From assembly GCF_050320075.1 (NCBI RefSeq), contig NZ_CP190018.1: a stretch of DNA of 64,000 nt; one strand, written 5' to 3'. Below, one piece after another: positions 6,594-49,142 of the stretch. Both the position numbers and the translations under genes were made by a program. Numbering within the stretch: the stretch's first letter is position 1; every line of letters begins with the position of its first letter. The DNA is from Escherichia coli (GTDB lineage Bacteria; Pseudomonadota; Gammaproteobacteria; Enterobacterales; Enterobacteriaceae). The notes below the pieces were generated by a model. The model searched no databases. It was not told the origin of the DNA and was given only the letters and a program-made list of their open reading frames with translations.

Positions 6594-7634
6594 TCATTTA
6601 TCGGAAGACGCCTGCCACAGATTCAGCTCGCCATCGGCGATATGCTGATCAATCTGCGCCAGCTCCTCGGTGCTAAATGTCAGATTATTCAGCGCCTGCA
6701 CGTTCTCCTCAAGTTGCTCCGCGCGGCTGGCACCAATCAATACCGACGTCACGCGATCATCTTTCAGCAACCAGCTTAACGCCATTTGCGCCATTGATTG
6801 TCCACGCTGCTGTGCCATTTCATTCAATAACCGCAGGCTGTTGAGGTTGGCTTCGGTGAGCATTTTCGGCGTCAGACCACGAACTTTATTCCCTTCACGA
6901 TGCATCCGTGAATCTTCAGGAATGCCGTTGAGATATTTTCCGGTCAGCAATCCCTGAGCCAGAGGAGTAAAGGCAATGCAGCCCACGCCGTTATGTTGCA
7001 GGGTATCCAGCAGGCCGCTTTTATCCACCCAGCGGTTCAGTAAATTGTAAGAAGGTTGATGAATTAACAGCGGAATTTTCCACTCGCGCAGCAACTCGAC
7101 CATTTTTTGCGTCCGCTCTGGCGAGTAAGAGGAGATCCCGACATAAAGCGCCTTACCGCTTTGTACCGCATGAGCCAGCGCAGAGGCGGTTTCTTCCATC
7201 GGCGTATTTTCATCGACGCGATGAGAGTAAAAGATATCGACATACTCAAGCCCCATCCGCTTCAGGCTTTGGTCGAGGCTGGCGAGCAGGTATTTACGTG
7301 AGCCGCCAGAGCCGTACGGGCCGGGCCACATATCGTATCCGGCTTTGGTAGAGATAATCAGTTCATCGCGATAAACAGCAAAATCCTCCCGAAGCAGGCG
7401 ACCAAAGTTCTCTTCTGCGCTTCCTGGAGGCGGCCCGTAATTGTTGGCTAAATCAAAGTGCGTAATGCCTAAATCAAACGCTTTACGCAGGATCGCACGC
7501 TGTGATTCCAGCGCGTTAACGTGACCGAAATTGTGCCATAAACCGAGCGATAACGCGGGCAGGCGTAAACCGCTTTTTCCGCAATAACGGTACTGCATCT
7601 GCCCGTAACGCTCGGGATTCGCTAACCAGACCAT
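6594..7634 (-). CDS. gpr: L-glyceraldehyde-3-phosphate reductase (aldo-keto reductase)
   Basis: 346-aa ORF (MVWLANPERYGQMQYRYCGKSGLRLPALSLGLWHNFG...), matching recalled Gpr/YghZ. Confidence 0.9.
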   Translation of the reverse strand: MVWLANPERYGQMQYRYCGKSGLRLPALSLGLWHNFGHVNALESQRAILRKAFDLGITHFDLANNYGPPPGSAEENFGRLLREDFAVYRDELIISTKAGYDMWPGPYGSGGSRKYLLASLDQSLKRMGLEYVDIFYSHRVDENTPMEETASALAHAVQSGKALYVGISSYSPERTQKMVELLREWKIPLLIHQPSYNLLNRWVDKSGLLDTLQHNGVGCIAFTPLAQGLLTGKYLNGIPEDSRMHREGNKVRGLTPKMLTEANLNSLRLLNEMAQQRGQSMAQMALSWLLKDDRVTSVLIGASRAEQLEENVQALNNLTFSTEELAQIDQHIADGELNLWQASSDK

Positions 7635-7787
7635 GACCTCTCCTTTCCACCATTCAATTTCGAAACAATGTTTCTAGTTTAGCGATTCATCAGCGCGTAT
7701 CCCGTAGTCTGGCTCACAGAGTGACGAAAAACTGGGCAAAAACACGTGCTTATGCTTTGCTTAAAAAAACACCAGCTGAGGAGTGCA

Positions 7788-8678
7788 ATGATGCCGCGTT
7801 TAACCGCCAAAGATTTCCCACAAGAGTTGCTGGATTACTACGACTATTACGCTCACGGGAAAATCTCGAAACGTGAGTTCCTCAACCTTGCGGCGAAGTA
7901 TGCGGTAGGCGGGATGACGGCATTAGCGTTGTTTGATTTGCTCAAGCCAAATTATGCGCTAGCGACTCAGGTAGAGTTTACCGACCCGGAGATTGTTGCT
8001 GAGTACATCACGTATCCTTCACCAAATGGTCACGGCGAGGTACGGGGTTATCTGGTGAAGCCCGCAAAGATGAGCGGCAAAACGCCAGCCGTGGTGGTGG
8101 TGCATGAGAATCGTGGACTGAATCCGTATATCGAAGATGTGGCACGGCGAGTGGCGAAGGCGGGGTATATCGCCCTGGCACCTGACGGCTTAAGTTCCGT
8201 TGGAGGTTATCCGGGTAATGATGATAAAGGTCGTGAGCTGCAACAGCAGGTTGATCCAACCAAACTGATGAATGATTTCTTTGCCGCAATTGAGTTTATG
8301 CAACGCTATCCGCAAGCGACAGGCAAAGTGGGTATTACCGGATTTTGCTATGGCGGTGGCGTATCGAACGCGGCGGCTGTCGCGTATCCGGAACTGGCCT
8401 GCGCGGTGCCGTTTTATGGTCGACAGGCACCCACCGCCGATGTGGCGAAGATTGAAGCGCCTTTACTACTCCACTACGCGGAACTGGACACCCGAATCAA
8501 CGAGGGCTGGCCTGCTTACGAGGCGGCGTTGAAAGCCAATAATAAGGTCTATGAGGCGTATATCTATCCGGGGGTTAATCACGGATTCCATAATGATTCC
8601 ACGCCCCGTTATGACAAATCTGCCGCCGATCTTGCCTGGCAAAGGACGCTGAAATGGTTCGATAAATATCTCTCCTGA
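7788..8678 (+). CDS. yghX: Dienelactone-hydrolase-family protein YghX, apparently intact
   Basis: Uninterrupted ORF. GAGGAG ribosome-binding site at 7778-7783, then tandem ATGs at 7788 and 7791; the start is uncertain by one codon. Confidence 0.8.
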   Translation: MMPRLTAKDFPQELLDYYDYYAHGKISKREFLNLAAKYAVGGMTALALFDLLKPNYALATQVEFTDPEIVAEYITYPSPNGHGEVRGYLVKPAKMSGKTPAVVVVHENRGLNPYIEDVARRVAKAGYIALAPDGLSSVGGYPGNDDKGRELQQQVDPTKLMNDFFAAIEFMQRYPQATGKVGITGFCYGGGVSNAAAVAYPELACAVPFYGRQAPTADVAKIEAPLLLHYAELDTRINEGWPAYEAALKANNKVYEAYIYPGVNHGFHNDSTPRYDKSAADLAWQRTLKWFDKYLS

Positions 8679-8796
8679 TAGGTTTATCTCTTACGGGATT
8701 ACGTCTTAAACAAGCATGAAAAAATAGCGTGCGCAAAAGTCGTTCTTTGCCTAAAATATCGCTATATATGGCAATATATAGCGAATGAGGTGAACG

Positions 8797-9084
8797 ATGA
8801 ATAACCATTTTGGTAAAGGCTTAATGGCGGGATTAAAAGCAACGCATGCCGACAGTGCGGTTAATGTGACAAAATACTGTGCCGATTATAAACGCGGTTT
8901 TGTATTAGGCTACTCACACCGGATGTACGAAAAGACCGGAGATCGCCAGCTTAGCGCCTGGGAAGCGGGTATTCTGACGCGCCGCTATGGACTGGATAAA
9001 GAGATGGTAATGGATTTCTTTCGTGAGAATAATTCCTGTTCTACGTTGCGCTTTTTTATGGCCGGTTATCGCCTCGAAAATTGA
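8797..9084 (+). CDS. yghW: Small protein YghW (DUF2623)
   Basis: 95-aa ORF in the conserved position upstream of hybO. Confidence 0.75.
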
Positions 9085-9272
9085 TCAAACATACGTATTA
9101 TCTTGCTTTAATTAATTACACTAATGCTTCTTCCCTTCGTTTTAGCGCCCCGCCGCAGTATCATGATATCGATAACCATAATAAATGTGTGGTAAATGGC
9201 GCATCGATCGCATTATTGATTTTGCGATTGAGGCAAAATATATGCCAGGTCTTCGCAACGGAATAACTATAA

Positions 9273-10391
9273 ATGACTGGAGATAACACCCTCATCCATT
9301 CTCACGGCATTAACCGTCGTGATTTCATGAAGCTTTGTGCAGCATTAGCCGCCACCATGGGGTTAAGTAGCAAAGCCGCTGCAGAGATGGCCGAATCGGT
9401 TACTAACCCGCAGCGTCCGCCAGTTATCTGGATTGGCGCGCAGGAGTGTACCGGTTGTACGGAATCTCTGCTTCGTGCAACGCATCCAACGGTAGAAAAC
9501 CTCGTGCTGGAGACTATCTCTCTGGAGTATCACGAAGTGCTTTCCGCCGCCTTCGGTCATCAGGTCGAAGAGAACAAACATAACGCTCTCGAGAAGTACA
9601 AAGGGCAGTATGTGTTAGTGGTGGATGGTTCCATCCCATTAAAAGATAATGGTATTTATTGCATGGTTGCCGGTGAGCCGATTGTGGATCACATCCGCAA
9701 AGCGGCGGAAGGCGCAGCAGCCATTATCGCTATCGGTTCCTGCTCTGCGTGGGGCGGTGTTGCCGCGGCTGGGGTTAACCCTACCGGCGCGGTCAGCCTG
9801 CAAGAAGTTCTGCCAGGCAAAACCGTTATTAACATTCCAGGCTGCCCGCCAAACCCGCACAACTTCCTCGCGACCGTTGCGCACATCATCACTTACGGCA
9901 AACCGCCGAAGCTGGATGATAAAAACCGTCCGACCTTCGCCTATGGTCGTCTGATTCACGAACACTGTGAACGTCGTCCGCACTTCGATGCTGGTCGTTT
10001 TGCCAAAGAGTTCGGCGATGAAGGCCACCGCGAAGGTTGGTGCCTGTACCACCTCGGCTGTAAAGGGCCAGAAACTTACGGCAACTGCTCAACGCTGCAA
10101 TTCTGCGACGTTGGCGGTGTGTGGCCGGTGGCAATTGGTCACCCATGCTATGGCTGTAACGAAGAAGGTATCGGCTTCCATAAAGGCATCCATCAGCTTG
10201 CCAACGTCGAAAACCAGACGCCGCGTTCACAAAAACCGGACGTCAACGCTAAAGAAGGCGGCAACGTCTCTGCGGGCGCTATTGGTTTGCTCGGCGGCGT
10301 GGTTGGGCTGGTTGCCGGTGTCAGCGTGATGGCGGTGCGTGAACTGGGGCGTCAGCAAAAGAAAGATAACGCTGACTCACGGGGAGAATAA
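9273..10391 (+). CDS. hybO: Hydrogenase-2 small subunit HybO (Tat-exported, [NiFe] hydrogenase)
   Basis: 372 aa with a twin-arginine signal (NRRDFMK) and Cys-rich FeS ligand motifs. Confidence 0.95.
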
Positions 10392-23072: not shown

Positions 23073-24422
23073 TTGGCGGGTTTTAACATCAAACATTGGT
23101 TTGCAGATGGCGCGTTTCGCACCATTATTCGCAATAGCGCCTGGTTAGGCTCCAGTAATGTCGTGAGCGCTTTGCTGGGTCTGTTGGCGCTCTCGTGTGC
23201 CGGTAAAGGGATGACGCCCGCCATGTTTGGCGTACTGGTGATTGTGCAATCGTACGCCAAGTCGATCAGCGATTTTATTAAGTTTCAGACATGGCAGTTG
23301 GTGGTGCAGTACGGAACGCCAGCCTTGACCAACAATAATCCGCAGCAATTTCGCAATGTCGTCTCATTTTCCTTCTCGTTGGATATCGTCAGCGGCGCGG
23401 TGGCGATTGTCGGCGGCATTGCCTTACTCCCTTTTCTTTCCCATTCATTAGGTCTGGATGACCAAAGCTTTTGGCTGGCAGCGCTGTATTGCACGCTCAT
23501 TCCTTCAATGGCTTCCTCCACGCCGACCGGCATTCTGCGTGCGGTAGATCGCTTCGACTTAATTGCTGTACAGCAGGCGACGAAACCTTTTCTGCGCGCA
23601 GCGGGGAGCGTCGTTGCCTGGTATTTTGACTTTGGTTTTGCGGGTTTTGTTATTGCCTGGTACGCCTCGAATCTTGTTGGCGGCACCATGTACTGGTGGT
23701 TTGCCGCACGTGAATTACGCCGCAGAAATATCCATAACGCGTTCAAATTGAATCTGTTTGAGTCTGCCCGACACATCAAAGGCGCGTGGAGTTTTGTCTG
23801 GTCAACCAACATTGCCCATTCCATCTGGTCGGCGCGTAATTCGTGCAGCACAGTGTTGGTGGGGATCGTGTTAGGACCCGCTGCCGCCGGGTTATTTAAA
23901 ATCGCCATGACATTCTTCGACGCCGCCGGAACGCCAGCGGGTTTACTGGGTAAAAGTTTTTACCCAGAGGTGATGCGTTTAGATCCGCGCACCACCAGAC
24001 CGTGGTTGTTAGGCGTGAAGTCCGGTTTACTGGCGGGCGGAATCGGTATTCTGGTGGCGCTCGCGGTGTTGATCGTCGGCAAGCCGCTCATTTCGCTGGT
24101 GTTTGGCGTTAAGTATCTCGAAGCGTATGACCTGATTCAGGTGATGCTGGGCGCAATTGTGATCTCGATGCTGGGCTTCCCTCAGGAGTCATTGCTATTG
24201 ATGGCGGGAAAACAGCGCGCTTTTCTCGTGGCGCAAACCATCGCCTCAATCGGCTACATCGTATTGCTGTTCATGTTCTGTCATCTGTTTGGCGTGCTGG
24301 GGGCTGCATTTGCTTACTTCGGTGGGCAATGTCTGGATGTGGTGTTCTCGCTAATTCCGACCTTAAAGGCATTTTTTCAGCGCCATTCCTTGCTTTATAA
24401 CTCAGCCGGAGAGAAATCCTGA
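23073..24422 (+). CDS. yghQ: Polytopic membrane protein YghQ, flippase-like (MOP/Wzx-type polysaccharide or lipid translocase fold inferred)
   Basis: Track ORF with a TTG start at 23073. The true start is uncertain; an ATG such as 23211 is possible. About 12 predicted hydrophobic segments. Its stop overlaps the next ORF's ATG. Confidence 0.75.
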   Translation: MAGFNIKHWFADGAFRTIIRNSAWLGSSNVVSALLGLLALSCAGKGMTPAMFGVLVIVQSYAKSISDFIKFQTWQLVVQYGTPALTNNNPQQFRNVVSFSFSLDIVSGAVAIVGGIALLPFLSHSLGLDDQSFWLAALYCTLIPSMASSTPTGILRAVDRFDLIAVQQATKPFLRAAGSVVAWYFDFGFAGFVIAWYASNLVGGTMYWWFAARELRRRNIHNAFKLNLFESARHIKGAWSFVWSTNIAHSIWSARNSCSTVLVGIVLGPAAAGLFKIAMTFFDAAGTPAGLLGKSFYPEVMRLDPRTTRPWLLGVKSGLLAGGIGILVALAVLIVGKPLISLVFGVKYLEAYDLIQVMLGAIVISMLGFPQESLLLMAGKQRAFLVAQTIASIGYIVLLFMFCHLFGVLGAAFAYFGGQCLDVVFSLIPTLKAFFQRHSLLYNSAGEKS

Positions 24423-25246
24423 TGATGAGAAAATATTTCCCGCTTGAGGCGAGCGAGCGTCTATTTGTTGCGATTGAAGAAGATGATGTTGTTGATGCAC
24501 AGGTCAGTTTGCCGCCGACTATCGCACTAAGTTGTACCACCGAAATCATCCATGATAATTACGCGTTATGCCTGCAATTCTGGCTCAATGGCGTCAATCG
24601 CCAGGAGTTACTGCGTTTAATATGCAAACAGGCCAAAGGCGATGAGCTGACTGCTGATGAGCGCAAACAATTTAAATACATGCGAGCGCGCTACAAGCAC
24701 CTGCGTTTTGCGCAACGGCTGTATTTAAAAAAGCATCAGGCCGGATTTTTATTCGGCAAAACGACCGTTTTTTTGGGGCGTTTTCAGGACGGCTTTCGTA
24801 ACGGTAAGAAAAATATTGTGTCGTATTACGGCAACCTGTTACGGGTTTATTTAAGCTCTCCGGTCTGGTCGTTGGTGAACTATTCATTACGCCATAGCCA
24901 GTTAGAAAGCGTAAGCGGTTTTATTGCCTATCGGCAAAAGCAAATGCATACCCTGAAAGAGATAATTGCCAAATCGCGACTAACTGGCAGGGAATTTCAT
25001 GATGTGCGAAAAATCATCAGCCAGCAGGTTTCTTATTACGACACCCTAAGATCGCTTGATCCTGAAAATAAAGAGGCGTTACAGATTTCCCGCTTCCTCG
25101 CCGCCATTAATGGCCTGATGGGGGATAAACACGACGACATGGTGGCGGATGATATGGAAAACCGCCAGTCGTATGATGCACCGATGGCGCTGGATAGCGA
25201 TATTCGTCAGCGCTTAGAACTGCTGATTTCGCGTTTTCCGCTATAA
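24422..25246 (+). CDS. Hypothetical soluble protein, 274 aa, translationally coupled to yghQ
   Basis: The ATG at 24422 overlaps the yghQ TGA. No signal peptide or TM segment and no family recognised; basic composition. Confidence 0.55.
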   Translation: MMRKYFPLEASERLFVAIEEDDVVDAQVSLPPTIALSCTTEIIHDNYALCLQFWLNGVNRQELLRLICKQAKGDELTADERKQFKYMRARYKHLRFAQRLYLKKHQAGFLFGKTTVFLGRFQDGFRNGKKNIVSYYGNLLRVYLSSPVWSLVNYSLRHSQLESVSGFIAYRQKQMHTLKEIIAKSRLTGREFHDVRKIISQQVSYYDTLRSLDPENKEALQISRFLAAINGLMGDKHDDMVADDMENRQSYDAPMALDSDIRQRLELLISRFPL

Positions 25247-25254
25247 CCGGAGCA

Positions 25255-25818
25255 ATGATGTCATCTCGTTTGATTATTGCGCTGGTTATCATGCTCTTAG
25301 CCCCGGGTGTGCAGGCGCACAATTTCGTCACTGGTAAAACGGTTACCCCTGTTTATATCCAGGAAGGCGGCGAGCTGCTTCTGAATAGCGAAGACGAAAT
25401 TCACTACCAAAAGTGGAACAGCACACAGCTGGCGGGAAAAGTCCGCATTATTCAGTATATCGCCGGGCGTAAGTCGGCGAAGAAAAAGAACTCACTGTTA
25501 ATTAAAGCGGTTGAAGCGGCAAACTTTCCGCAGGATCGTTTTCAGCCCACCACCATTGTGAACACTGATGATGCCATCTTTGGTACCGACTATTTTGTCG
25601 TTGGCAAAATCGAAAAAAATAAACGCCGCTATCCATGGGCGCAATTCGTTATTGACGGCAATGGACAGGGACGCGTTGCCTGGCACTTGCAGGAGCAGAG
25701 TTCAACCATTCTGGTGCTGAATAAAACCGGGCAAATTCAGTGGGCAAAGGACGGCAGTCTGACGCCGGAAGAGGTAGATCATGTCATTGCGCTGGCGCAG
25801 AAACTGATCAATGAATAA
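25255..25818 (+). CDS. YtfJ-family periplasmic protein (signal peptide)
   Basis: 187 aa with an N-terminal signal (MMSSRLIIALVIMLLAPGVQA). It resembles recalled E. coli YtfJ over its whole length (HNFVTGKTVTP..., TTIVNTDDAI..., WAKDGSLTPEEV). Confidence 0.7.
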   Translation: MMSSRLIIALVIMLLAPGVQAHNFVTGKTVTPVYIQEGGELLLNSEDEIHYQKWNSTQLAGKVRIIQYIAGRKSAKKKNSLLIKAVEAANFPQDRFQPTTIVNTDDAIFGTDYFVVGKIEKNKRRYPWAQFVIDGNGQGRVAWHLQEQSSTILVLNKTGQIQWAKDGSLTPEEVDHVIALAQKLINE

Positions 25819-25848
25819 AAAATTCAAAGGATTGAGGGCGTTAGTGAG

Positions 25849-26919
25849 ATGAAGCTGGTTGAACACTACATCATGCGTGGTACGCGCCGTCTGGTGCTGA
25901 TTATCGTCGGTTTTCTGATCTTTATTTTCGCCAGCTACTCCGCACAGCGTTATCTGACCGAAGCGGCAAATGGGACATTAGCTCTTGATGTTGTGCTGGA
26001 TATCGTTTTCTACAAGGTGCTGATTGCACTGGAGATGTTGTTACCTGTTGGACTGTATGTGTCAGTTGGCGTGACGCTAGGGCAGATGTATACCGACTCG
26101 GAAATTACCGCTATCTCTGCGGCGGGGGGCAGTCCGGGACGCTTGTACAAAGCCGTTCTTTATCTGGCGATACCGCTAAGTATTTTTGTCACCCTTCTGT
26201 CGATGTATGGTCGTCCGTGGGCTTATGCACAGATTTATCAACTGGAGCAACAGTCACAGTCGGAGCTGGATGTTCGCCAGTTGCGGGCAAAGAAATTTAA
26301 CACTAACGATAACGGACGAATGATCCTTTCGCAGACGGTTGATCAGGATAATAATCGCCTGACTGACGCGCTGATTTATACTTCTACTGCCAATCGAACC
26401 CGCATTTTCCGCGCCCGTTCGGTTGATGTGGTTGACCCATCACCTGAGAAACCGACCGTTATGTTGCATAACGGGACCGCCTATCTTCTCGATCATCAGG
26501 GGCGTGACGACAACGAACAGATCTACCGTAATCTGCAATTACATCTGAATCCGCTGGATCAAAGCCCTAACGTCAAACGCAAAGCAAAATCGGTCACGGA
26601 GCTGGCGCGCTCCGTCTTTCCAGCCGATCATGCCGAACTGCAATGGCGACAAAGCCGTGGCCTGACAGCGTTGTTGATGGCGCTGCTGGCCATTTCATTA
26701 AGTCGGGTAAAACCGCGGCAAGGGCGATTTTCAACGTTATTGCCACTGACGTTGCTGTTTGTTGCCATTTTTTATGGCGGCGACGTCTGCCGTACGCTGG
26801 TGGCTAACGGCGCGATTCCCCTCATTCCTGGTTTGTGGTTAGTACCCGGACTCATGCTAATGGGCCTGCTGATGCTGGTCGCACGCGACTTCTCTTTGCT
26901 GCAGAAATTTTCCCGATGA
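25849..26919 (+). CDS. LptF-like permease (YjgP/YjgQ family) paralog
   Basis: 356 aa with the LptF/LptG architecture: three TM segments, a large periplasmic insert, then three TM segments. N-terminus MKLVEHYIMRGTRRLVLIIVGFL. Distinct from housekeeping lptF. Confidence 0.75.
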   Translation: MKLVEHYIMRGTRRLVLIIVGFLIFIFASYSAQRYLTEAANGTLALDVVLDIVFYKVLIALEMLLPVGLYVSVGVTLGQMYTDSEITAISAAGGSPGRLYKAVLYLAIPLSIFVTLLSMYGRPWAYAQIYQLEQQSQSELDVRQLRAKKFNTNDNGRMILSQTVDQDNNRLTDALIYTSTANRTRIFRARSVDVVDPSPEKPTVMLHNGTAYLLDHQGRDDNEQIYRNLQLHLNPLDQSPNVKRKAKSVTELARSVFPADHAELQWRQSRGLTALLMALLAISLSRVKPRQGRFSTLLPLTLLFVAIFYGGDVCRTLVANGAIPLIPGLWLVPGLMLMGLLMLVARDFSLLQKFSR

Positions 26920-27995
26920 ATGTTTTCAGTCGCTATTTAATCCGTCATCTCTTTCTCGGTTTTGCCGCCGCCGCAGGGCTATTGCTGCCGCTTTTTACTA
27001 CCTTCAACCTGATTAACGAACTGGATGATGTCAGCCCGGGCGGTTATCGCTGGACTCAGGCGGTGCTGGTGGTGCTGATGACCTTACCGCGTACACTGGT
27101 CGAACTTTCGCCGTTTATCGCCTTATTGGGAGGGATTGTTGGCCTGGGGCAGTTATCGAAAAACAGTGAGCTTACCGCCATTCGCAGCACAGGGTTTTCT
27201 ATCTTCCGTATTGCACTGGTGGCGCTGGTTGCCGGGATATTGTGGACTGTTTCGTTAGGCGCGATAGATGAGTGGGTGGCGTCGCCATTGCAGCAACAGG
27301 CGCTGCAAATCAAATCGACTGCCACCGCGTTGGGGGAGGACGATGACATTACCGGCAATATGCTTTGGGCCAGGCGCGGTAATGAATTTGTGACGGTGAA
27401 ATCGCTGAACGAGCAGGGCCAGCCTGTGGGCGTGGAGATATTTCATTATCGCGACGATCTCTCGCTCGAATCCTACATTTTTGCACGCAGTGCCTCCATT
27501 GAAGACGACAAAACATGGATCCTGCATGGTGTGAATCATAAAAAATGGTTGAATGGCAAAGAAACGCTGGAAACATCAGATAATCTTGCCTGGCAATCGG
27601 CCTTCACCAGTATGAATCTTGAAGAGTTATCGATGCCGGGAAATACTTTTTCTGTCCGTCAACTTAATCATTACATCCATTATTTGCAGGAAACTGGGCA
27701 ACCCAGCAGCGAATACCGCCTTGCACTGTGGGAAAAACTGGGACAACCCATCCTGACCCTGGCGATGATTTTGCTGGCTGTGCCGTTTACCTTTAGTGCC
27801 CCGCGTTCGCCAGGGATGGGTAGCCGTCTCGCTGTAGGCGTCATCGTTGGCTTACTCACCTGGATCAGCTATCAAATCATGGTCAATCTGGGGTTGCTAT
27901 TTGCGTTGAGCGCACCTGTTACCGCGCTCGGTTTACCGGTAGCGTTTGTGCTGGTGGCGTTGAGCCTGGTGTATTGGTATGACAGACAACATTAA
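26916..27995 (+). CDS. LptG-like permease (YjgP/YjgQ family) paralog
   Basis: Track ORF 26835..27995 trimmed to the ATG at 26916 (MNVFSRYLIRHLFLGFAAAAG...), which overlaps the stop of the preceding permease (ATGA). Same architecture as LptG. Confidence 0.75.
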   Translation: MNVFSRYLIRHLFLGFAAAAGLLLPLFTTFNLINELDDVSPGGYRWTQAVLVVLMTLPRTLVELSPFIALLGGIVGLGQLSKNSELTAIRSTGFSIFRIALVALVAGILWTVSLGAIDEWVASPLQQQALQIKSTATALGEDDDITGNMLWARRGNEFVTVKSLNEQGQPVGVEIFHYRDDLSLESYIFARSASIEDDKTWILHGVNHKKWLNGKETLETSDNLAWQSAFTSMNLEELSMPGNTFSVRQLNHYIHYLQETGQPSSEYRLALWEKLGQPILTLAMILLAVPFTFSAPRSPGMGSRLAVGVIVGLLTWISYQIMVNLGLLFALSAPVTALGLPVAFVLVALSLVYWYDRQH

Positions 27996-28029
27996 ACCCG
28001 CCGTGGCGCAGCGCCACAGCGGGCTCACA

Positions 28030-29202
28030 TTACTGCTTCAGAGTAGCGAACGCTTGAATGATGGCATCAATTTGCTCACGACTGTGGGCAGCGTTTACGC
28101 TACAGCGCAGCAGCGTGATGCCTGCAGGCGCGGCAGGTGGCAGGATAAGATTCACATAAACGCCCAGCGAAATAAGCTCGCGCCAGATGCGTAAACCGTC
28201 CTCTTTCGAACCGATTATTACTGGCACTACCGGGCTAATATGTGAACTTAACTCGTAACCCAGTTTTTGCAGACCGTCATACAGATGGTTGGCATTATCC
28301 ATCAGCTTTTGCCGCAACTCTGGTTGTGTAGCAATGGTTCTTAACGACGAGCGCACGGTCGCAATGCAGGACGGAGAAGGAGAGGCGGTAAAAATATACG
28401 GGCGGCTGCCGTAGCGCAGCACTTCCATCGCTTCCGAACCGACAGCAAAACCGCCAATCGAGGCCAGACTTTTACTGAAAGTACCAACGATAATATCCAC
28501 ATCATCTTCAACGCCAACGGCTTCAGCCAGTCCGCGCCCCGTTGCGCCTAACACGCCAAACGAATGCGCTTCATCGACAATCAAATAACCACCGAGACGA
28601 CGTTTGATATCAACAATTTCCGCCAGCGGCGCAACGTCACCGAGCATACTGTAGATGCCTTCAACGATGATAATCGCCTCTTTTGCCCGTTCACCGAGGC
28701 GAACCATGCGCCGTTCCAGATCTTTAGCATCGTTATGGCGGAAACGAATAATTTCCGCGCCACCGAGAGAACAGGCGTCATAAATACTGGCGTGGCTGTC
28801 GGCATCCAGTAACACCACGGCGTTATGGTCGGCAAGTGCGCTGATGACGCCTAAATTAGCGGTATAACCGGTTGAAAAAACGATAGCGGTAGGGCGATTA
28901 AAAAACTCGGCGATCTCTTTCTCTAACGCCAGATGCGGCGCATAACTGCCGTTTGCCATACGAGAACCGGTGGTGCCGGTGCCTTGGGCCGCTAACGCTG
29001 CCTGACCTTCGGCGATGGCATCATGATTGAAGGTTAATCCGAGATAATTATTGGTCCCGGCCAGAATCACTTTTTTATTGCCGATCCGGCCTTCGGTGGC
29101 GGAATACACTTCATCAATACAGGTACCAAACGGCGTTAACCCGTTGTCACTAAATTGCAGTCGCTCGCCAGCAAGACGCGCATATTTATCGTATAGCCCC
29201 AT
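28030..29202 (-). CDS. Alpha-oxoamine synthase (class-II aminotransferase), serine-palmitoyltransferase-like
   Basis: 390 aa with the PLP-lysine motif GTFSKSLASIGG and a HSFG motif, typical of the Spt/BioF/KBL family. Last gene of a four-gene minus-strand operon. Confidence 0.8.
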   Translation of the reverse strand: MGLYDKYARLAGERLQFSDNGLTPFGTCIDEVYSATEGRIGNKKVILAGTNNYLGLTFNHDAIAEGQAALAAQGTGTTGSRMANGSYAPHLALEKEIAEFFNRPTAIVFSTGYTANLGVISALADHNAVVLLDADSHASIYDACSLGGAEIIRFRHNDAKDLERRMVRLGERAKEAIIIVEGIYSMLGDVAPLAEIVDIKRRLGGYLIVDEAHSFGVLGATGRGLAEAVGVEDDVDIIVGTFSKSLASIGGFAVGSEAMEVLRYGSRPYIFTASPSPSCIATVRSSLRTIATQPELRQKLMDNANHLYDGLQKLGYELSSHISPVVPVIIGSKEDGLRIWRELISLGVYVNLILPPAAPAGITLLRCSVNAAHSREQIDAIIQAFATLKQ

Positions 29203-29450
29203 TATTTATTCTCCAGCCATGGAAGTAGTGTTTCCATTAATTGCGCAGGGGTTTTGACATCCAGCAGAATATTAATAGGAATGGAAATATCGAATCTGTC
29301 TTCCAGCATCATTAAGAGATCCATCACTTTGATCGACTCCAGGCCAAGATCGTTGACGAGATCGCTGTCGGGCTTAATTTCCACACCGTTTTCGACCAAA
29401 TCCTGTAAACAGGAAAGGATGTAATCCATTACTATTTCACGATTTACCAT
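29202..29450 (-). CDS. Standalone acyl carrier protein
   Basis: 82 aa with a phosphopantetheine-attachment-like motif (DLGLESIKVMDL). Its stop overlaps the start of the downstream alpha-oxoamine synthase. Confidence 0.75.
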   Translation of the reverse strand: MVNREIVMDYILSCLQDLVENGVEIKPDSDLVNDLGLESIKVMDLLMMLEDRFDISIPINILLDVKTPAQLMETLLPWLENK

Positions 29451-29481
29451 AGAAACGTTAACACACCTTTAAACAAGACAA

Positions 29482-30396
29482 TCAAAATAGCCCGTTGCGT
29501 AATGCGTGTTCCAGGCTAATCCCGGGAAACCAATTAATATCTTCAGAAATACGGTTATTACTTGCTGACCAGTCGGCGTGGGTTAATTCACGGATTTTCG
29601 AGCGGGTCAGCATAGGTTCTTTACCTGCCAGGCGACTCAACGTGGTACTGATATCCGCAAGGCAGGTGAGTACCGACAGAGGAATACCAACCATTCGAAC
29701 GGAACCACAACGGGCGTCGGCGGCAAGCTGTCTTACGCGTTGCCAGTCATAGCCGCCGGCGACGCCATCGCATAATTCATAGGTTTGCGTCTGTACAGTT
29801 TCGGCGCTTAACCACTGCCCCACGGCTTGCGCGAAATCGGTGACGTGCAGGAAAGAGAGCTGTGTATCTGGCGCACCAAGTCGTGGCAGCAGGCCGCGCA
29901 GCATCCAGTCAAACAGCGGTTTTAACTCTTTATCGCCGGGACCATACACGGCTGTCGGGCGAAAAATGCCCAGCGTAATTTCGTCAGCCATTGCGGTCAG
30001 TCGTTGTTCGGCGACGTGTTTGGAGTTTGCATACCAGGAGAGTTCGGGATGACGCGCCGCCAGCGAAGAGATAAACAGAAAACGTTGGCAAAAGCCGCTC
30101 TCTTTTGCCGCTTGCATCAGGCGCAGGCTGCCGTCAACGTTACAGCGGGTAAAAATCTCTTCTTTGTGTCCGCGCACTTGTCCGGCGCAATGGACCACCG
30201 CGCTGGCTCCGGCAACCAGTTCGCTAAGCGAATGTGTATCTTCCAGCGAACCGCGCACCCAGATGAGATTATCATTGACGTGAGCGCGGGCAGTACGCGT
30301 CAATGCGCGAACGTGAAAGCCGCGGGCGAGCAGGTTATCGATAATATATTTACCGATAAACCCGGTAGCGCCCGTCACCGCGACAGTTTGATTCAT
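29482..30396 (-). CDS. NAD(P)-dependent epimerase/dehydratase (extended SDR) family reductase
   Basis: 304 aa with an N-terminal GATGFIG Rossmann motif and a YANSK (YxxxK) catalytic motif. Its start overlaps the upstream ligase stop by 4 nt. Confidence 0.8.
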   Translation of the reverse strand: MNQTVAVTGATGFIGKYIIDNLLARGFHVRALTRTARAHVNDNLIWVRGSLEDTHSLSELVAGASAVVHCAGQVRGHKEEIFTRCNVDGSLRLMQAAKESGFCQRFLFISSLAARHPELSWYANSKHVAEQRLTAMADEITLGIFRPTAVYGPGDKELKPLFDWMLRGLLPRLGAPDTQLSFLHVTDFAQAVGQWLSAETVQTQTYELCDGVAGGYDWQRVRQLAADARCGSVRMVGIPLSVLTCLADISTTLSRLAGKEPMLTRSKIRELTHADWSASNNRISEDINWFPGISLEHALRNGLF

Positions 30397-32114
30397 GCCA
30401 GGGATTCCTGCACATGAAGGCTTGCAGCATAAGCCTTCTGATAACGTTTTTTCGCTTCCGCACGGGCAGGCTTGCCGGAGGACGTTCGGGGAATACTGTG
30501 GGGCGGCAACAGATCGATAGCCGCGGTCACGCCAAATTCGCTTTGGATCCGTGCTGCCAGCGCGTGGATAAGCTGCCCGCGACGTTCTTCATCGCTGATC
30601 CGACACTGGATCTGCAAAATGATTTTTTCCTGGGCGGTAACAAAAGCAATCGCATCGCCAGAATGAATTTCCGGTTCCTGTTCCGCAATATATTCAATAT
30701 CCTGCGGCCAGATATTGCGGCCACGAATAATAATCAGATCTTTAATGCGTCCGGTGACATACAGATAACCGTCCAGCAGATAACCGAGGTCGCCGGTGTC
30801 TAACCAGCCCGTCGCGGCAATCTCGTCTTGTGAAATCTGGTCGCCAAAGTAACCGCTCATCAGGCTAGGGCCGGAGATGCAAATATGGCCTACCACACGT
30901 TCCGCGACAGGTATACCTGCTTCATTGCGGATTTCAATGCCATGTTCCGGCAACGCTTTACCGCAGTTGACGAAAGTCGATACGGCGCGTGTTTCAGCAT
31001 CCGGCGCGACGGCTTTGCCCTGATATTCGAGGATGTCGCGATCCACTTCGTTAACCACAACCCCGGAAGCTTCATCAGAGAAGCTGACAGCCAGCGCATT
31101 TTCTGCCAGTCCGTAGCACGGCATGAACGTTTTATCGTCAAAGTTAACCTGACGAAAACATTCAGCGAATTGATGGAGTTGTTCTGCGGAGATCGGTTCT
31201 GCGCCAATACCAGCGACGCGCCAGCAGGAAAGATCCAGTTCAGCGAGATCTTTTTCATTCACGCGGCGCTGGCACAATTCATAGCCAAACGGCGGCGCAA
31301 CGGAAACGGTGCCGCGATTTTTACTGATCAATTTAAGCCATTGCAGAGGACGCATGGCAAAATCCTGAGTGCGCAAATAATCTACTGAGAGCTGCGTGGC
31401 GACGGGGGTCAGGAGAAAGCCGACCAGTCCCATATCATGGTAGAAAGGCAGCCAGGAGACGCAGCGGTCGCCAGGGCGTAATTTAATGCCATCGTGGCTT
31501 ATAGCACGTAGATTAGCCATCACTTCGCGATGGGTGATAATGACGCCACGGGGAAAACGGGTGCTGCCGGAGGTGTACTGGAGGTAGGCGATATCGTTCG
31601 GAACTGGACGCTGGAGTGCAACATCGGCTTCCGGTAATGCCTTAAACCAGGCGTGGCTTAAAACATGTAATTCGGGTTTGTTATGCGTCGCGGCATTGAC
31701 CAGCGGTAACCACTCATCACCAGTGATAATGGCTGCGGGCTGGCAACTTGCCAGTAAACCCTGCAGTTTGGCGCTCCAGGAATCCCGCTGACCGACGCCC
31801 ATTGGAATCGCCAACGGGACGGCGATTAAGCCGGCATACTGGCAGGAAAAAAAAGCCTCTACGAACCCGCTACTGGTTTCGGCAATCAGCGCCACGCGAT
31901 CGCCTTTTTTCAGGTTCAGCGATAACAACCGCTTCGCACCAGCTTCGGCACGCGCTTTTAACGTCTGATATTCCAGTTGATCTTCAAGTTGGCAACGTCT
32001 GTCATAAAAATTCATTCCGGCGCTACTCAGAGCGGCGTAGTCCAAAGCATCAACCAGCGTTGGAAAATCGGCATAGCGCATAGGTAGGGAATGCGTAAAG
32101 ATTTTATTAGACAT
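30393..32114 (-). CDS. AMP-binding enzyme, fatty-acyl-AMP ligase or acyl-ACP synthetase-like
   Basis: Track ORF 30393..32141 trimmed to the ATG at the complement of 32112-32114 (MSNKIFTHSLPMRY...). Adenylation core motif YTSGSTRFPRGV. First gene of the operon. Confidence 0.8.
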   Translation of the reverse strand: MSNKIFTHSLPMRYADFPTLVDALDYAALSSAGMNFYDRRCQLEDQLEYQTLKARAEAGAKRLLSLNLKKGDRVALIAETSSGFVEAFFSCQYAGLIAVPLAIPMGVGQRDSWSAKLQGLLASCQPAAIITGDEWLPLVNAATHNKPELHVLSHAWFKALPEADVALQRPVPNDIAYLQYTSGSTRFPRGVIITHREVMANLRAISHDGIKLRPGDRCVSWLPFYHDMGLVGFLLTPVATQLSVDYLRTQDFAMRPLQWLKLISKNRGTVSVAPPFGYELCQRRVNEKDLAELDLSCWRVAGIGAEPISAEQLHQFAECFRQVNFDDKTFMPCYGLAENALAVSFSDEASGVVVNEVDRDILEYQGKAVAPDAETRAVSTFVNCGKALPEHGIEIRNEAGIPVAERVVGHICISGPSLMSGYFGDQISQDEIAATGWLDTGDLGYLLDGYLYVTGRIKDLIIIRGRNIWPQDIEYIAEQEPEIHSGDAIAFVTAQEKIILQIQCRISDEERRGQLIHALAARIQSEFGVTAAIDLLPPHSIPRTSSGKPARAEAKKRYQKAYAASLHVQESLA

Positions 32115-32141
32115 ATACACCACGAAAAAATTGGATATCAA

Positions 32142-32485
32142 AAATAAAATGACAATAATGCGGTGGATTATATAGGCATAAAAGATAAATGAGATAGTAT
32201 TTTCATCAGTGTGAAAATGAACATTGATTTAAATAATGAGTTTGAGTTTTTTTGTTTTTATTGTGAATGATATTTAATTTATGAATGTATTAAGAAGAAG
32301 CCTTGTCCGGTCGCCTTAAATCGACAAAAGGCATTGTGGCGCTTCTGTGTAGTCTCTGACCTTATCGTAATCATTAATAAATACTATTTATTCGTCGTTT
32401 GTATTCATTGGGTTGATTATTAAGGTGCCGTTCGTTGCTGTTGCAACCTGTTTGTCACCGTTAATTATTTGTTACCCACAGAACT
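32142..32485. promoter_or_regulatory. AT-rich divergent promoter region between the ligase operon (-) and the yghO-like gene (+)
   Basis: 344-bp non-coding, visibly AT-rich segment. No individual sites were mapped. Confidence 0.4.
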
Positions 32486-43559: not shown

Positions 43560-46500
43560 ATGAATAAGAAATTTAAATATAAGAAATCGCTTTTAGCGGC
43601 TATTTTGAGCGCAACCCTGTTAGCCGGTTGTGATGGCGGTGGTTCCGGATCTTCCTCCGATACGCCGCCTGTAGATTCTGGAACAGGGTCTTTGCCGGAA
43701 GTGAAACCTGATCCAACACCAAACCCGGAGCCGACGCCTGAGCCAACGCCGGACCCAGAACCTACGCCGGAACCGACACCTGATCCTGAGCCAACACCAG
43801 AACCGGAGCCAGAACCTGTTCCTACGAAAACGGGTTATCTGACCCTGGGCGGAAGCCAGCGGATAACTGGTGCTACTTGTAATGGTGAATCCAGCGATGG
43901 CTTTACCTTTACGCCAGGCGACAAAGTCACCTGTGTGGCAGGGAACAACACGACAATTGCTACCTTCGACACCCAGTCAGAAGCTGCGCGTAGCCTGCGT
44001 GCGGTTGAAAAAGTGTCGTTTAGTCTTGAGGATGCGCAAGAACTGGTGGCTTCCGATGACAAGAAAAGCAATGCGGTTTCGCTGGTAACGTCCAGTAACA
44101 GCTGTCCGGCGAATACAGAACAGGTTTGCCTGACGTTCTCCTCTGTGATCGAGAGTAAACGTTTCGACTCACTGTATAAGCAAATCGATCTGGCACCGGA
44201 AGAGTTCAAAAAGCTGGTCAATGAAGAGGTGGAAAACAATGCTGCGACCGATAAAGCGCCATCCACTCATACCTCACCGGTTGTGCCTGTCACCACGCCG
44301 GGAACAAAACCGGATCTGAACGCTTCCTTCGTGTCGGCTAACGCGGAACAGTTTTATCAGTATCAACCTTCGGAAATCATTCTCTCCGAAGGCCGACTGG
44401 TCGATAGCCAGGGATATGGTGTTGCTGGCGTCAACTACTACACCAATTCAGGCCGTGGCGTGACAGGGGAAAATGGTGAATTTTCCTTTAGCTGGGGCGA
44501 AACCATCTCCTTTGGTATCGATACCTTTGAACTGGGCTCAGTGCGCGGCAATAAGTCGACCATTGCATTGACTGAACTGGGTGATGAAGTTCGCGGGGCG
44601 AATATTGATCAGCTTATTCATCGCTATTCGACGACCGGGCAAAATAATACCCGTGTTGTTCCGGACGATGTACGCAAGGTCTTTGCCGAATATCCCAACG
44701 TGATCAACGAGATTATCAATCTCTCGTTATCCAACGGTGCGACGCTGGATGAAGGTGAGCAAGTTGTTAATCTGCCAAACGAATTTATTGAGCAGTTTAA
44801 GACGGGTCAAGCCAAAGAGATCGATACCGCAATCTGTGCGAAAACTGGCGGTTGCAACCAGGCACGCTGGTTCTCGCTGACGACGCGCAATGTTAATGAC
44901 GGCCAGATTCAGGGCGTTATCAACAAGCTGTGGGGCGTGGATACAAGTTACAAATCTGTCAGCAAGTTCCATGTATTCCATGACTCCACCAACTTCTATG
45001 GCAGCACCGGTAATGCGCGCGGTCAGGCGGTGGTGAATATCTCTAACGCGGCCTTCCCGATTCTGATGGCGCGTAATGATAAAAACTACTGGCTGGCCTT
45101 CGGCGAGAAACGCGCCTGGGATAAAAACGAGCTGGCGTACATTACGGAAGCGCCTTCTCTTGTTGAGCCGGAAAACGTTACGCGCGATACCGCCACCTTT
45201 AACCTGCCGTTTATTTCGCTGGGGCAAGTCGGTGAGGGCAAACTGATGGTTATCGGTAACCCGCACTACAACAGCATTTTGCGTTGTCCGAACGGTTACA
45301 GCTGGAACGGGGGCGTTAATAAAGACGGGCAGTGTACGCTCAGCGGTGATTCAGATGACATGAAGCACTTCATGCAGAACGTACTGCGCTATCTGTCCGA
45401 CGATAAATGGACTCCGGACGCGAAAGCCAGCATGACCGTAGGCACCAACCTGGATACTGTCTATTTCAAACGTCATGGTCAGGTTACAGGAAATAGCGCT
45501 GAGTTCGGCTTTCATCCGGATTTTGCGGGTATCTCTGTTGAGCATTTAAGTAGCTATGGCGATCTCGACCCGCAGGAAATGCCGCTGCTGATCCTCAACG
45601 GCTTTGAGTATGTGACTCAGGTTGGTAACGATCCTTATGCAATCCCGCTGCGAGCAGATACCAGCAAACCGAAGCTGACTCAGCAGGATGTGACCGATCT
45701 GATCGCCTATCTGAACAAAGGTGGATCGGTGCTGATCATGGAAAACGTGATGAGCAATCTTAAGGAAGAGAGCGCGTCTGGCTTTGTACGTCTGCTTGAT
45801 GCCGCAGGTCTGTCGATGGCACTGAACAAGTCGGTAGTAAATAACGATCCGCAAGGGTATCCGAACCGCGTTCGTCAGCAGCGCGCAACGGGCATTTGGG
45901 TCTATGAACGTTATCCTGCCGTAGATGGTGCGCTGCCGTACACCATCGATAGTAAGACAGGGGAAGTTAAGTGGAAATATCAGGTAGAAAACAAACCTGA
46001 TGACAAACCGAAGCTGGAAGTTGCCAGCTGGCTGGAAGATGTAGATGGCAAACAGGAAACGCGTTATGCCTTTATTGATGAGGCCGATCATAAAACAGAG
46101 GATTCTCTGAAGGCTGCGAAGGCAAAAATCTTTGAGAAGTTTCCTGGATTAAAGGAGTGTAAGGACCCAACTTACCACTACGAGGTCAACTGTCTGGAAT
46201 ATCGTCCTGGCACGGGGGTTCCGGTTACTGGTGGCATGTATGTTCCACAGTATACGCAACTAAGCCTTAACGCCGACACGGCAAAAGCGATGGTGCAGGC
46301 TGCGGATTTAGGCACCAACATTCAGCGTCTGTATCAGCATGAGCTCTACTTCCGGACCAATGGTCGCAAAGGTGAGCGTCTGAGCAGCGTCGATCTGGAA
46401 CGTCTGTACCAGAACATGTCGGTCTGGCTGTGGAATAAAATTGAATATCGCTATGAAAACGACAAGGATGACGAGCTGGGCTTTAAAACGTTCACTGAGT

Positions 46501-48128
46501 TCCTGAATTGCTACGCCAACAATGCCTATAGCGAAGGCACGCAGTGTTCTGCAGATCTGAAAAAATCGCTTGTCGATAACAACATGATCTACGGTGACGG
46601 TAGCAGCAAAGCAGGCATGATGAACCCGAGCTATCCGCTCAACTATATGGAAAAACCGCTGACGCGCCTGATGCTGGGTCGTTCCTGGTGGGATCTGAAC
46701 ATCAAAGTTGATGTCGAGAAGTATCCGGGAGCGGTATCGGCAGAAGGTGAGAAGGTTACTGAAACCATCAGCCTGTACTCGAATCCGACCAAATGGTTTG
46801 CGGGTAACATGCAGTCTACTGGCCTGTGGGCTCCGGCTCAGAAAGAGGTCACCATTGAGTCTACTGCATCAGTTCCTGTGACTGTCACCGTGGCGCTGGC
46901 CGACGATCTGACCGGACGCGAGAAGCATGAAGTCGCGCTGAACCGTCCGCCAAAAGTGACGAAAACCTATGATCTGAAAGCCAATGATAAGGTGACCTTC
47001 AAGGTGCCTTACGGTGGTCTGATTTATATCAAGGGCAACAGCCCAAAGAATGAGTCAGCCGAATTCACCTTTACTGGTGTGGTAAAAGCGCCGTTCTATA
47101 AAGACGGCGAATGGAAAAACGCTCTGAACTCCCCTGCGCCGTTGGGTGAGCTGGAGTCAGATTCTTTCGTCTACACTGCACCGAAGAACAACCTGAACGC
47201 CAGCAATTACAAGGATAAGGGTGGCCTGAAACAATTCGCTAAAGATCTGGATACCTTTGCCAGCTCGATGAATGATTTCTACGGTCGTAATGATGAAGAC
47301 GGTAAGCACCGGATGTTTACCTATAAAAACTTGACGGGGCACAAGCATCGTTTCACCAACGATGTGCAGATCTCCATCGGTGATGCGCACTCTGGTTATC
47401 CGGTAATGAACAGCAGCTTCTCGACGAACAGCACCACGCTGCCGACGACGCCGCTGAACGACTGGCTGATCTGGCACGAAGTTGGTCACAACGCCGCCGA
47501 AACGCCGCTGACTGTTCCTGGCGCAACTGAAGTAGCGAACAACGTGCTGGCGCTGTACATGCAGGATCGCTATCTCGGCAAGATGAACCGTGTCGCTGAC
47601 GACATTACCGTCGCGCCGGAATATCTGGAGGAGAGCAACGGTCAGGCATGGGCGCGCGGCGGTGCGGGGGACCGTCTGCTGATGTACGCACAGCTGAAAG
47701 AGTGGGCAGAGAAAAACTTTGATATCAAGACGTGGTATCCAGATGGCAATCTGCCAGAGTTCTACAGCGAGCGTGAAGGGATGAAAGGCTGGAACCTGTT
47801 CCAGTTGATGCACCGTAAAGCGCGCGGCGATGAGGTTGGCAATAACAAGTTCGGCAGTAAGAACTACTGTGCTGAATCTAACGGTAACGCTGCCGACACG
47901 CTGATGCTGTGTGCCTCCTGGGTCGCCCAGACGGATCTTTCGGAGTTCTTTAAGAAATGGAATCCGGGCGCGAATGCTTACCAGTTGCCGGGAGCGACGG
48001 AGATGAGCTTCGAAGGCGGTGTGAGCCAGTCGGCTTACAACACGCTCGCGTCACTCGATCTGCCGAAACCGAAGCAAGGGCCGGAAACCATTAATAAGGT
48101 TACCGAATATTCGATGCCTGCTGAATAA
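43560..48128 (+). CDS. sslE: SslE/YghJ surface lipoprotein, M60-like zinc metalloprotease (mucinase), substrate of the adjacent type II secretion system
   Basis: Track ORF 43542..48128 (TTG start) trimmed to the ATG at 43560 (MNKKFKYKKSLLAAILSATLLAGC). LAGC lipobox, a Pro/Glu/Thr-rich linker, and an HEVGH zinc-binding motif (LIWHEVGHNAAE). Confidence 0.9.
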   Translation: MNKKFKYKKSLLAAILSATLLAGCDGGGSGSSSDTPPVDSGTGSLPEVKPDPTPNPEPTPEPTPDPEPTPEPTPDPEPTPEPEPEPVPTKTGYLTLGGSQRITGATCNGESSDGFTFTPGDKVTCVAGNNTTIATFDTQSEAARSLRAVEKVSFSLEDAQELVASDDKKSNAVSLVTSSNSCPANTEQVCLTFSSVIESKRFDSLYKQIDLAPEEFKKLVNEEVENNAATDKAPSTHTSPVVPVTTPGTKPDLNASFVSANAEQFYQYQPSEIILSEGRLVDSQGYGVAGVNYYTNSGRGVTGENGEFSFSWGETISFGIDTFELGSVRGNKSTIALTELGDEVRGANIDQLIHRYSTTGQNNTRVVPDDVRKVFAEYPNVINEIINLSLSNGATLDEGEQVVNLPNEFIEQFKTGQAKEIDTAICAKTGGCNQARWFSLTTRNVNDGQIQGVINKLWGVDTSYKSVSKFHVFHDSTNFYGSTGNARGQAVVNISNAAFPILMARNDKNYWLAFGEKRAWDKNELAYITEAPSLVEPENVTRDTATFNLPFISLGQVGEGKLMVIGNPHYNSILRCPNGYSWNGGVNKDGQCTLSGDSDDMKHFMQNVLRYLSDDKWTPDAKASMTVGTNLDTVYFKRHGQVTGNSAEFGFHPDFAGISVEHLSSYGDLDPQEMPLLILNGFEYVTQVGNDPYAIPLRADTSKPKLTQQDVTDLIAYLNKGGSVLIMENVMSNLKEESASGFVRLLDAAGLSMALNKSVVNNDPQGYPNRVRQQRATGIWVYERYPAVDGALPYTIDSKTGEVKWKYQVENKPDDKPKLEVASWLEDVDGKQETRYAFIDEADHKTEDSLKAAKAKIFEKFPGLKECKDPTYHYEVNCLEYRPGTGVPVTGGMYVPQYTQLSLNADTAKAMVQAADLGTNIQRLYQHELYFRTNGRKGERLSSVDLERLYQNMSVWLWNKIEYRYENDKDDELGFKTFTEFLNCYANNAYSEGTQCSADLKKSLVDNNMIYGDGSSKAGMMNPSYPLNYMEKPLTRLMLGRSWWDLNIKVDVEKYPGAVSAEGEKVTETISLYSNPTKWFAGNMQSTGLWAPAQKEVTIESTASVPVTVTVALADDLTGREKHEVALNRPPKVTKTYDLKANDKVTFKVPYGGLIYIKGNSPKNESAEFTFTGVVKAPFYKDGEWKNALNSPAPLGELESDSFVYTAPKNNLNASNYKDKGGLKQFAKDLDTFASSMNDFYGRNDEDGKHRMFTYKNLTGHKHRFTNDVQISIGDAHSGYPVMNSSFSTNSTTLPTTPLNDWLIWHEVGHNAAETPLTVPGATEVANNVLALYMQDRYLGKMNRVADDITVAPEYLEESNGQAWARGGAGDRLLMYAQLKEWAEKNFDIKTWYPDGNLPEFYSEREGMKGWNLFQLMHRKARGDEVGNNKFGSKNYCAESNGNAADTLMLCASWVAQTDLSEFFKKWNPGANAYQLPGATEMSFEGGVSQSAYNTLASLDLPKPKQGPETINKVTEYSMPAE
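43705..43825 (+). repeat. In-frame tandem repeat encoding the (P-E-P-T-P-D)n low-complexity linker of SslE
   Basis: Reiterated ccggagccgacgcct / ccagaacctacgccg-type units; protein reads PDPTPNPEPTPEPTPDPEPTPEPTPDPEPTPEPEPEPVPT. Confidence 0.8.
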
Positions 48129-49077: not shown

Positions 49078-49142
49078 TGATAACCACGTCATTATCGAAG
49101 TGACATTTTTACTCTTATTAATAACCTTAGAGATTATTTACC

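Follow-up and report, generated by a model that had tools for sequence, protein, structure and literature searches.

The window, i.e., the whole stretch of 64,000 nucleotides of Escherichia coli DNA analysed here, contains at positions 7791 to 8678 (plus strand) what is in all likelihood the intact, ancestral E. coli core gene yghX. Its product would be a 295-residue precursor which consists of a 58-residue leader and a dienelactone-hydrolase-fold domain with the triad Cys186-His264-Asp233. The YghX leader is the small oddity of this protein: it is unusually conserved, confidently modelled and Tat-like, and it can be tested. In addition, the small protein YqhI of K-12, known from work on its induction by stress, is the stump that is translated from the yghX pseudogene. 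This bears on the interpretation of the yqhI deletion phenotype and of the 'YqhI-like' protein family.

The reading frame, its start and its neighbours

The open frame extends from 7746 to 8678 on the plus strand. From an in-frame ATG at 7788 the ORF listing yields 891 nt, i.e., 296 codons and a TGA stop (7788 to 8678). By chance, a given start would be followed by 296 codons without a stop with a probability of about 7e-7, and the translation matches the NCBIfam family NF041440 (YghX family hydrolase) with 588 bits against a curated cut-off of 460, covering profile positions 1-292 of 292. Thus, the yghX ORF is a real gene.

The first-pass annotation had noted an uninterrupted ORF of about 296 aa with a good ribosome-binding site. 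The frame is indeed open from 7788 to 8678, and a Shine-Dalgarno sequence, GAGGAG, can be read at 7778-7783 (plus strand). The start, however, is the next ATG at 7791, which shortens the protein to 295 aa. We place it there because 7791 is the start in all homologues, because PGAP selected it for the identical gene of E. coli strain 746, and because the epitope-tagged YqhI of K-12 is annotated from the same ATG. The CDS then comprises 295 codons plus TGA (7791 to 8678, plus strand) and corresponds to the PGAP CDS WP_001309763.1 of strain 746, whose yghX copy is 100% identical to that of the window. The distance between GAGGAG and the ATG at 7791 is 7 nt, which is ideal. The upstream in-frame ATG (7788-7790, plus strand) is probably not used as a start. 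Among the alleles examined it is present only in the lineage of the window; the codon is ACG in K-12 as well as in four divergent alleles of E. coli. If used, it would add a single Met, and it is merely 4 nt away from the ribosome-binding site.

Two syntenic markers flank the gene. Upstream and divergently transcribed is gpr (6594 to 7634, minus strand), downstream is yghW (DUF2623; 8797 to 9084, plus strand). The window shares the order gpr-yghX-yghW with 5415 of the 5426 complete E. coli genomes. A simple scan of 7500-9300 detected neither a sigma-70-like site on the plus strand upstream of yghX nor a terminator behind it; the missing promoter is uninformative because the expression of YqhI in K-12 proves that a promoter exists. 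Two antisense ORFs within yghX (8008-8289 and 8575-8808, both on the minus strand) were considered and discarded, as nothing was found in their favour. An antisense overlapping pair 'yghX/modA' of K-12 is cited in two papers. Since modA lies elsewhere these citations cannot mean the present locus, and the name has apparently been mixed up.

For the downstream neighbour yghW a promoter TTGCCT-17-GACAAT has been reported (Shimada 2014). In the window it reads TTGCCT at 8747-8752 and GGCAAT at 8770-8775; K-12 has an A at 8771. A perfect inverted repeat, TCGCTATATAT-GGCA-ATATATAGCGA, is located at 8759-8784, where it overlaps the spacer and the -10 element. Positioned just upstream of the yghW ribosome-binding site, it is a possible operator.

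Family, fold and catalytic triad

Beyond NF041440 two Pfam families are matched. PF01738 (DLH) scores 164.7 bits against a gathering threshold of 21 (3e-48; profile positions 1-217 of 217), and PF23678 ('YqhI-like') scores 75.9 bits against 27. The α/β-hydrolase domain with the dienelactone hydrolase fold comprises residues 59-295 (7965 to 8675, plus strand). For this part an experimental structure of an orthologue exists: PDB entry 4ZV9, an E. coli O157:H7 Sakai protein deposited as 'uncharacterized protein', is 98% identical over YghX residues 59-294. The AlphaFold model of YghX superimposes on 4ZV9 with an rmsd of 1.0 Å (TMt 0.99) and, according to Foldseek, on the dienelactone hydrolase ClcD (1DIN) with an rmsd of 2.4 Å over 234 columns (TMt 0.84).

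The triad was placed by a HMMER alignment to Pseudomonas dienelactone hydrolase (4U2C, 1DIN), and residue conservation was read from 33 homologues with 36-68% identity. Cys186 (codon TGC, 8346-8348), the predicted nucleophile, aligns with ClcD residue 123 and is a Cys in 30/33 homologues. Asp233 (codon GAC, 8487-8489) aligns with ClcD Asp171 and is invariant (33/33), and His264 (codon CAC, 8580-8582) aligns with ClcD His202 and is conserved in 30/33; all three codons are on the plus strand. ClcD residues 123, 171 and 202 constitute its catalytic triad. In the same alignment E106 of YghX falls on E36 of ClcD.

Five intact E. coli alleles were compared by the Nei-Gojobori method. The dN/dS ratios are 0.02-0.13 at dS values of up to 0.22, and the first 58 codons are free of any amino-acid replacement. 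The two-domain architecture of 294-299 aa is retained in Citrobacter, Enterobacter, Leclercia, Kosakonia and Pseudescherichia at 85-93% identity. Intact yghX alleles are thus under strong purifying selection. Because of the low dN/dS, the preserved architecture, the orthologue structure 4ZV9 and the conserved Cys-Asp-His triad, YghX is very probably an active thiol-nucleophile hydrolase. Most likely it would be an esterase or a lactonase which operates via an acyl-enzyme intermediate as in ClcD. The earlier suggestion of a functional enzyme of the dienelactone hydrolase family is well supported on these grounds, i.e., by the intact triad, the dN/dS values and the 98% identical O157:H7 orthologue structure.

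One may object that the ORF is open by chance or by recent history, and that yghX is a dispensable, cryptic gene which is decaying in the lineage of the window, too. After all, its loss is tolerated by about 23% of E. coli genomes, and K-12 strains which carry expression cassettes in place of yghX grow well. Dispensability in these strains has to be weighed against dN/dS ratios of 0.02-0.13 between intact alleles, against the conservation of the catalytic residues, and against an architecture of 295 aa which was kept in the five other genera named above. On balance, we consider decay in the window highly improbable and retain the reading of an intact, selected gene.

A literature search retrieved no report on enzymatic activity, substrate or localisation of YghX. 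In one paper a YghX-like protein of another species is listed as devoid of PETase activity. The annotation of strain 746 contains no pathway genes next to yghX, those of the chlorocatechol pathway included. The neighbourhoods of the distant homologues P0122, P0140 and P0214, on contigs of 1.9-4.1 kb, have no neighbour in common and supply no functional clue.

Two deletions in the K-12 gene

The first-pass annotation described yghX as a pseudogene in K-12 and proposed an alignment to locate the lesion. This description was correct. MG1655 has yghX (b4658) annotated as a pseudogene, with a 47-residue CDS, yqhI (b4755), over its 5' end, and PGAP flags yghX of BW25113 as 'frameshifted'. Pairwise alignment of window positions 7600-8800 with MG1655 shows 20 substitutions and two deletions in K-12; DNA identity at the locus is 98.1%. 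The K-12 copy, with these two deletions in MG1655, is thus not intact, unlike that of the window. The first lesion is a 2-bp deletion in codon 37 (TAT in AAG-TAT-GCG; 7899-7901, plus strand), which causes the frameshift and terminates YqhI at 47 aa. The second is a 1-bp deletion of a C in codon 157 (ACC; 8259-8261, plus strand; position 8260 or 8261) by which the original frame is regained. The window is undeleted at both codons, i.e., it does not carry a K-12-type pseudogene.

Of the 12 substitutions within the CDS, 11 are synonymous, and the +1 frame of K-12 between both lesions is free of stops and still encodes conserved YghX sequence. The K-12 pseudogene is therefore young. The idea that the second deletion rescued the protein by restoring the frame was dismissed: the shifted frame meets a stop 11 codons past the first deletion.

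Allele frequencies and order of events

Alleles were counted by megablast in 5426 complete genomes using 44-nt queries which span the junctions. As neither flank reaches the length of the 28-nt word, a hit can be seeded only in carriers of the respective allele. The 2-bp deletion allele of K-12 is present in 1251/5426 genomes and the 1-bp deletion allele in 1199. The undeleted codon-157 allele was counted in 4221 genomes and the undeleted codon-37 allele in 3333, the latter being an undercount with nearby SNPs as the probable cause. The deletions are not specific for K-12: they are present in about 23% of the complete E. coli genomes and absent from about 77%. The ETEC strain H10407 has them, and so do many wild isolates of human, pig, poultry, dog and water origin.

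Two genomes, LD93-1 and 30859_5#40, share all 12 K-12 substitutions and carry the 2-bp deletion only; their genes are flagged as frameshifted by PGAP. Because these two have solely the 2-bp deletion, it must have come first, and the 1-bp deletion followed later on the same haplotype. The pseudogene thus arose in two steps on a single haplotype, at codon 37 and subsequently at codon 157. A two-step lesion that roughly a quarter of the complete genomes have in common is a lineage marker rather than a laboratory artefact.

In principle, the direction could be reversed. The K-12 arrangement of YqhI and a separate downstream remnant would then be ancestral, and the long ORF of the window a secondary fusion. 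YqhI can be detected as a protein, and nothing else speaks for such a scenario. The outgroups refute it: the other genera and the representatives at 36-68% identity all possess a single protein of about 295 aa. Moreover, conserved YghX sequence is still encoded in the +1 frame between the K-12 deletions, and an intermediate allele with one deletion exists. The probability of a fusion is practically nil, and the loss of an ancestral long gene stands.

The intact yghX of the window is the normal, ordinary state, which was known already and is documented in annotation. Most E. coli genomes have it, the loss of the gene in K-12 belongs to textbook knowledge, and the locus routinely serves as a neutral integration site; in W3110 yghX is the standard 'pseudogene locus' for integration.

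Relation of the window to strain 746 and to K-12

The intact frame had also been taken as support for a non-K-12 origin of the DNA. The origin is correct; the argument is weakly informative, because a gene state shared by about 77% of complete genomes, i.e., those without the deletions, has little diagnostic value. Stronger evidence comes from elsewhere in the window. Over positions 1-50000 the window is collinear with NZ_CP023353.1 of strain 746, a canine strain from Edinburgh; in these 50 kb the two differ by 11 mismatches and by no indel. Further, none of 156 25-mers sampled from window positions 24,400-32,200 is present in the corresponding K-12 region, which has an IS5 between yghO and a shortened yghQ. 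The near-identity to strain 746 and this cluster of about 8 kb, missing from the corresponding K-12 region, are better evidence for the non-K-12 origin than the intact yghX. At 7600-8800, 181 of 5425 genomes are at least 99% identical to the window.

According to the annotation of strain 746 the roughly 8 kb at 24400-32200 encode a hypothetical protein, a YtfJ-family protein, LptF/LptG-like permeases and a serine palmitoyltransferase, and also an acyl carrier protein, an epimerase and a fatty acyl-AMP ligase. At 43560-50000 the same annotation lists sslE (a lipoprotein metalloprotease), followed by pppA, gspS-beta and gspC of the type II secretion system beta. The K-12 names for the corresponding set are yghJ, pppA, yghG and yghF.

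YqhI is the stump of yghX

In K-12 YqhI (b4755) is located at NC_000913.3 3147597-3147740. It consists of YghX residues 1-36 and a frameshift tail of 11 residues; the resulting sequence, MPRLTAKDFPQELLDYYDYYAHGKISKREFLNLAAKCGRRDDGISVV, matches the published YqhI sequence exactly. The part kept in YqhI is the conserved segment ahead of the leader motif (residues 1-36; 7791 to 7898, plus strand). This is also what PF23678 describes: the 36 positions of the family match residues 2-37 of the 296-aa translation, i.e., residues 1-36 when counted from the conserved start. Judged by these sequence matches, both the Pfam family PF23678 and YqhI derive from the N-terminal leader of YghX.

YqhI protein has been detected by chromosomal epitope tagging (PMC6001520). 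It is induced under Mg2+ limitation independently of PhoQP, as seen by ribosome profiling and RNA-seq (PMC11429745). What K-12 continues to translate from the yghX start, as far as the first frameshift, is YqhI; thus, the promoter, ribosome-binding site and ATG of yghX are active. Neither of the two papers describes YqhI as the stump of yghX. One gives only 'yghX_2 / gpr' as neighbours; in the other the words 'yghX' and 'pseudogene' are absent, and the phenotype of the yqhI deletion was not complemented by the peptide. YqhI is reported to be soluble, as expected because it does not contain the hydrophobic part of the leader.

The N-terminal leader

The putative Tat-type leader comprises residues 1-58 (7791 to 7964, plus strand) and was not part of the 4ZV9 construct. 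In E. coli it starts with a conserved n-region which includes L-L-D-Y-Y-D-Y-Y-A-H-G-K-I-S. This is followed by K27-R28-E-F-L, a hydrophobic stretch rich in Gly, Ala and Thr, and P-N-Y-A56-L-A58, such that A56-L57-A58 directly precedes the start of the crystallised domain. The motif S-K-R-E-F-L compares with the Tat consensus S/T-R-R-x-F-L-K. K27-R28 (7869 to 7874, plus strand) occupies the position of the twin arginines, and R-R is present here in 26/33 distant homologues; F30 is conserved in 29/33 and A58 in 25/33. The segment ahead of the motif carries a conserved signature of its own, L16-[YF]17-D18-x-[YF]20-x-H22.

Across the family the same picture emerges. A leader-length N-terminus is present in 84 of 150 cluster representatives, with RR in 73/84 and KR in 9/84. 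Among the 82 RR/KR representatives the leader ends in A-x-A in 68 and in a lipobox in 6, and in 56/82 a [LIV]-[YF]-D-x-[YF]-x-H signature is positioned upstream of RR. In P0203, P0214 and P0227 a terminal (I/L)LAAC is followed by a Pro/Thr/Ala/Ser-rich linker of 40-80 residues before the catalytic domain begins; by its sequence this combination of lipobox and linker is a signature of Tat-type lipoproteins. In E. coli the uncharged stretch from Y37 to F48, bounded by K36 and D49, comprises 12 residues; in the family its median length is 15, with a range of 7-35. According to rules of the TatFind type, the motif should be followed by an uncharged hydrophobic region at least about 13 residues long. 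Single K-R variants of Tat signals are functional, a natural example being TtrB of Salmonella.

Tat-type export is the best reading for the family because it accommodates the RR/KR motif, the A-x-A or lipobox ending and the lipoprotein-like linkers. The leader would then most likely be a Tat-type signal, in E. coli a natural K-R variant, which is cleaved after A-L-A58 and directs the folded enzyme to the periplasm. From such features we consider it quite probable that the YghX family as a whole is exported; for the E. coli protein itself export appears moderately likely. The literature on localisation and Tat dependence of proteins of the dienelactone hydrolase family yielded nothing specific to the YghX subfamily.

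A different picture emerges from structure prediction. AlphaFold, run on an alignment of 33 sequences and without templates, folds residues 1-60 into three short helices with pLDDT values of 92-96. In the model of P0214 the leader reaches a pLDDT of 87-93 and the intervening linker about 40. The leader is thus confidently modelled despite a disordered linker, which suggests a specific association with the enzyme domain, as far as a model can tell. Such a confidently predicted fold conflicts with a simple cleavable Tat signal. The signature upstream of RR, the K-R and the short uncharged stretch of E. coli, and the high conservation of the leader within Enterobacteriaceae do not fit a disposable signal peptide either.

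Consequently, an alternative has to be weighed in which the gene is intact and functional, YghX is cytoplasmic, and residues 1-58 form a folded three-helix element (a helix-loop-helix and a third helix) which would pack against the hydrolase domain, e.g., as a lid or as a regulatory cap. The confident folding of the E. coli leader and, in spite of its disordered linker, of that of P0214 fits such a cap. The same holds for its conservation, which is at least as high as that of the enzyme in Enterobacteriaceae (92% for the leader vs 88% for the enzyme) and admits no change among the five E. coli alleles. K-R takes the place of R-R in E. coli, and the charged residues K36 and D49 flank merely 12 hydrophobic residues; the EF-hand-like matches of residues 10-36, weak and not significant, may be added. 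Yet a cap leaves unexplained why RR or KR, with F/L and a hydrophobic stretch behind it, is found in 82/84 representatives with a leader, why the ending is A-x-A in 68/82 of these and a lipobox in 6, and why three of the latter have long Pro/Thr-rich tethers typical of lipoproteins. Further, the catalytic domain folds and crystallises in the absence of the leader (4ZV9), and in comparisons of distant relatives it is the leader that has diverged faster (32% vs 46% for the enzyme). A cytoplasmic YghX with a permanent cap is therefore unlikely in our view, and the Tat-type signal remains the preferred reading.

The two sets of observations might be accommodated jointly. The leader could be a folded three-helix pro-segment which docks on the hydrolase in the cytoplasmic precursor and is removed later; YqhI, induced by Mg2+ starvation in K-12, would be its orphaned first half, with expression having outlasted the loss of the enzyme. 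Suggested by models, this is a tentative idea which we rate as doubtful. If true, the pro-segment could, for instance, mask the active-site cysteine or provide the precursor with its own quality control of Tat export.

The first two helices of the leader (residues 10-36; window 7818-7898) have weak matches to the EF-hands of centrin and calcineurin B (E 0.08-1.6). The loop carries D, G, I and E at EF-hand positions 1, 6, 8 and 12, and Y and H at the ligand positions 3 and 5. A classification of the leader as an EF-hand was rejected: a search of solved structures with the leader alone was non-significant (E≥0.08), and the positions of the Ca ligands are not conserved.

Comparison with known systems

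The closest relative with a structure is the O157:H7 Sakai orthologue (4ZV9). It occupies the same gpr-yghX-yghW position and is 98% identical over residues 59-294. A few polymorphisms (V69F, S135N, Y229F) distinguish an O157 allele from that of the window, and the crystallised construct is devoid of the 58-residue leader; there is no substantive difference. The K-12 pair yghX (b4658)/YqhI (b4755) shares the locus and the start codon with the gene of the window. It differs by the deletions in codons 37 and 157, and from the start codon only the 47-residue stump YqhI is made.

ClcD (carboxymethylenebutenolidase, EC 3.1.1.45; PDB 1DIN) has the fold, the Cys-Asp-His triad, the equivalent of Glu36 and the PF01738 domain in common with YghX. 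Identity is, however, about 25%, and ClcD has no N-terminal leader. ClcD belongs to the chlorocatechol pathway.

With Tat signal peptides the YghX family shares the x-R-R-x-F-L motif, a moderately hydrophobic stretch rich in Gly, Ala, Ser and Thr, and an A-x-A or lipobox ending. In contrast to these, YghX possesses a conserved segment of about 20 residues ahead of the motif, E. coli YghX has K-R in place of the twin arginines, and the whole YghX leader is modelled by AlphaFold as a folded entity.
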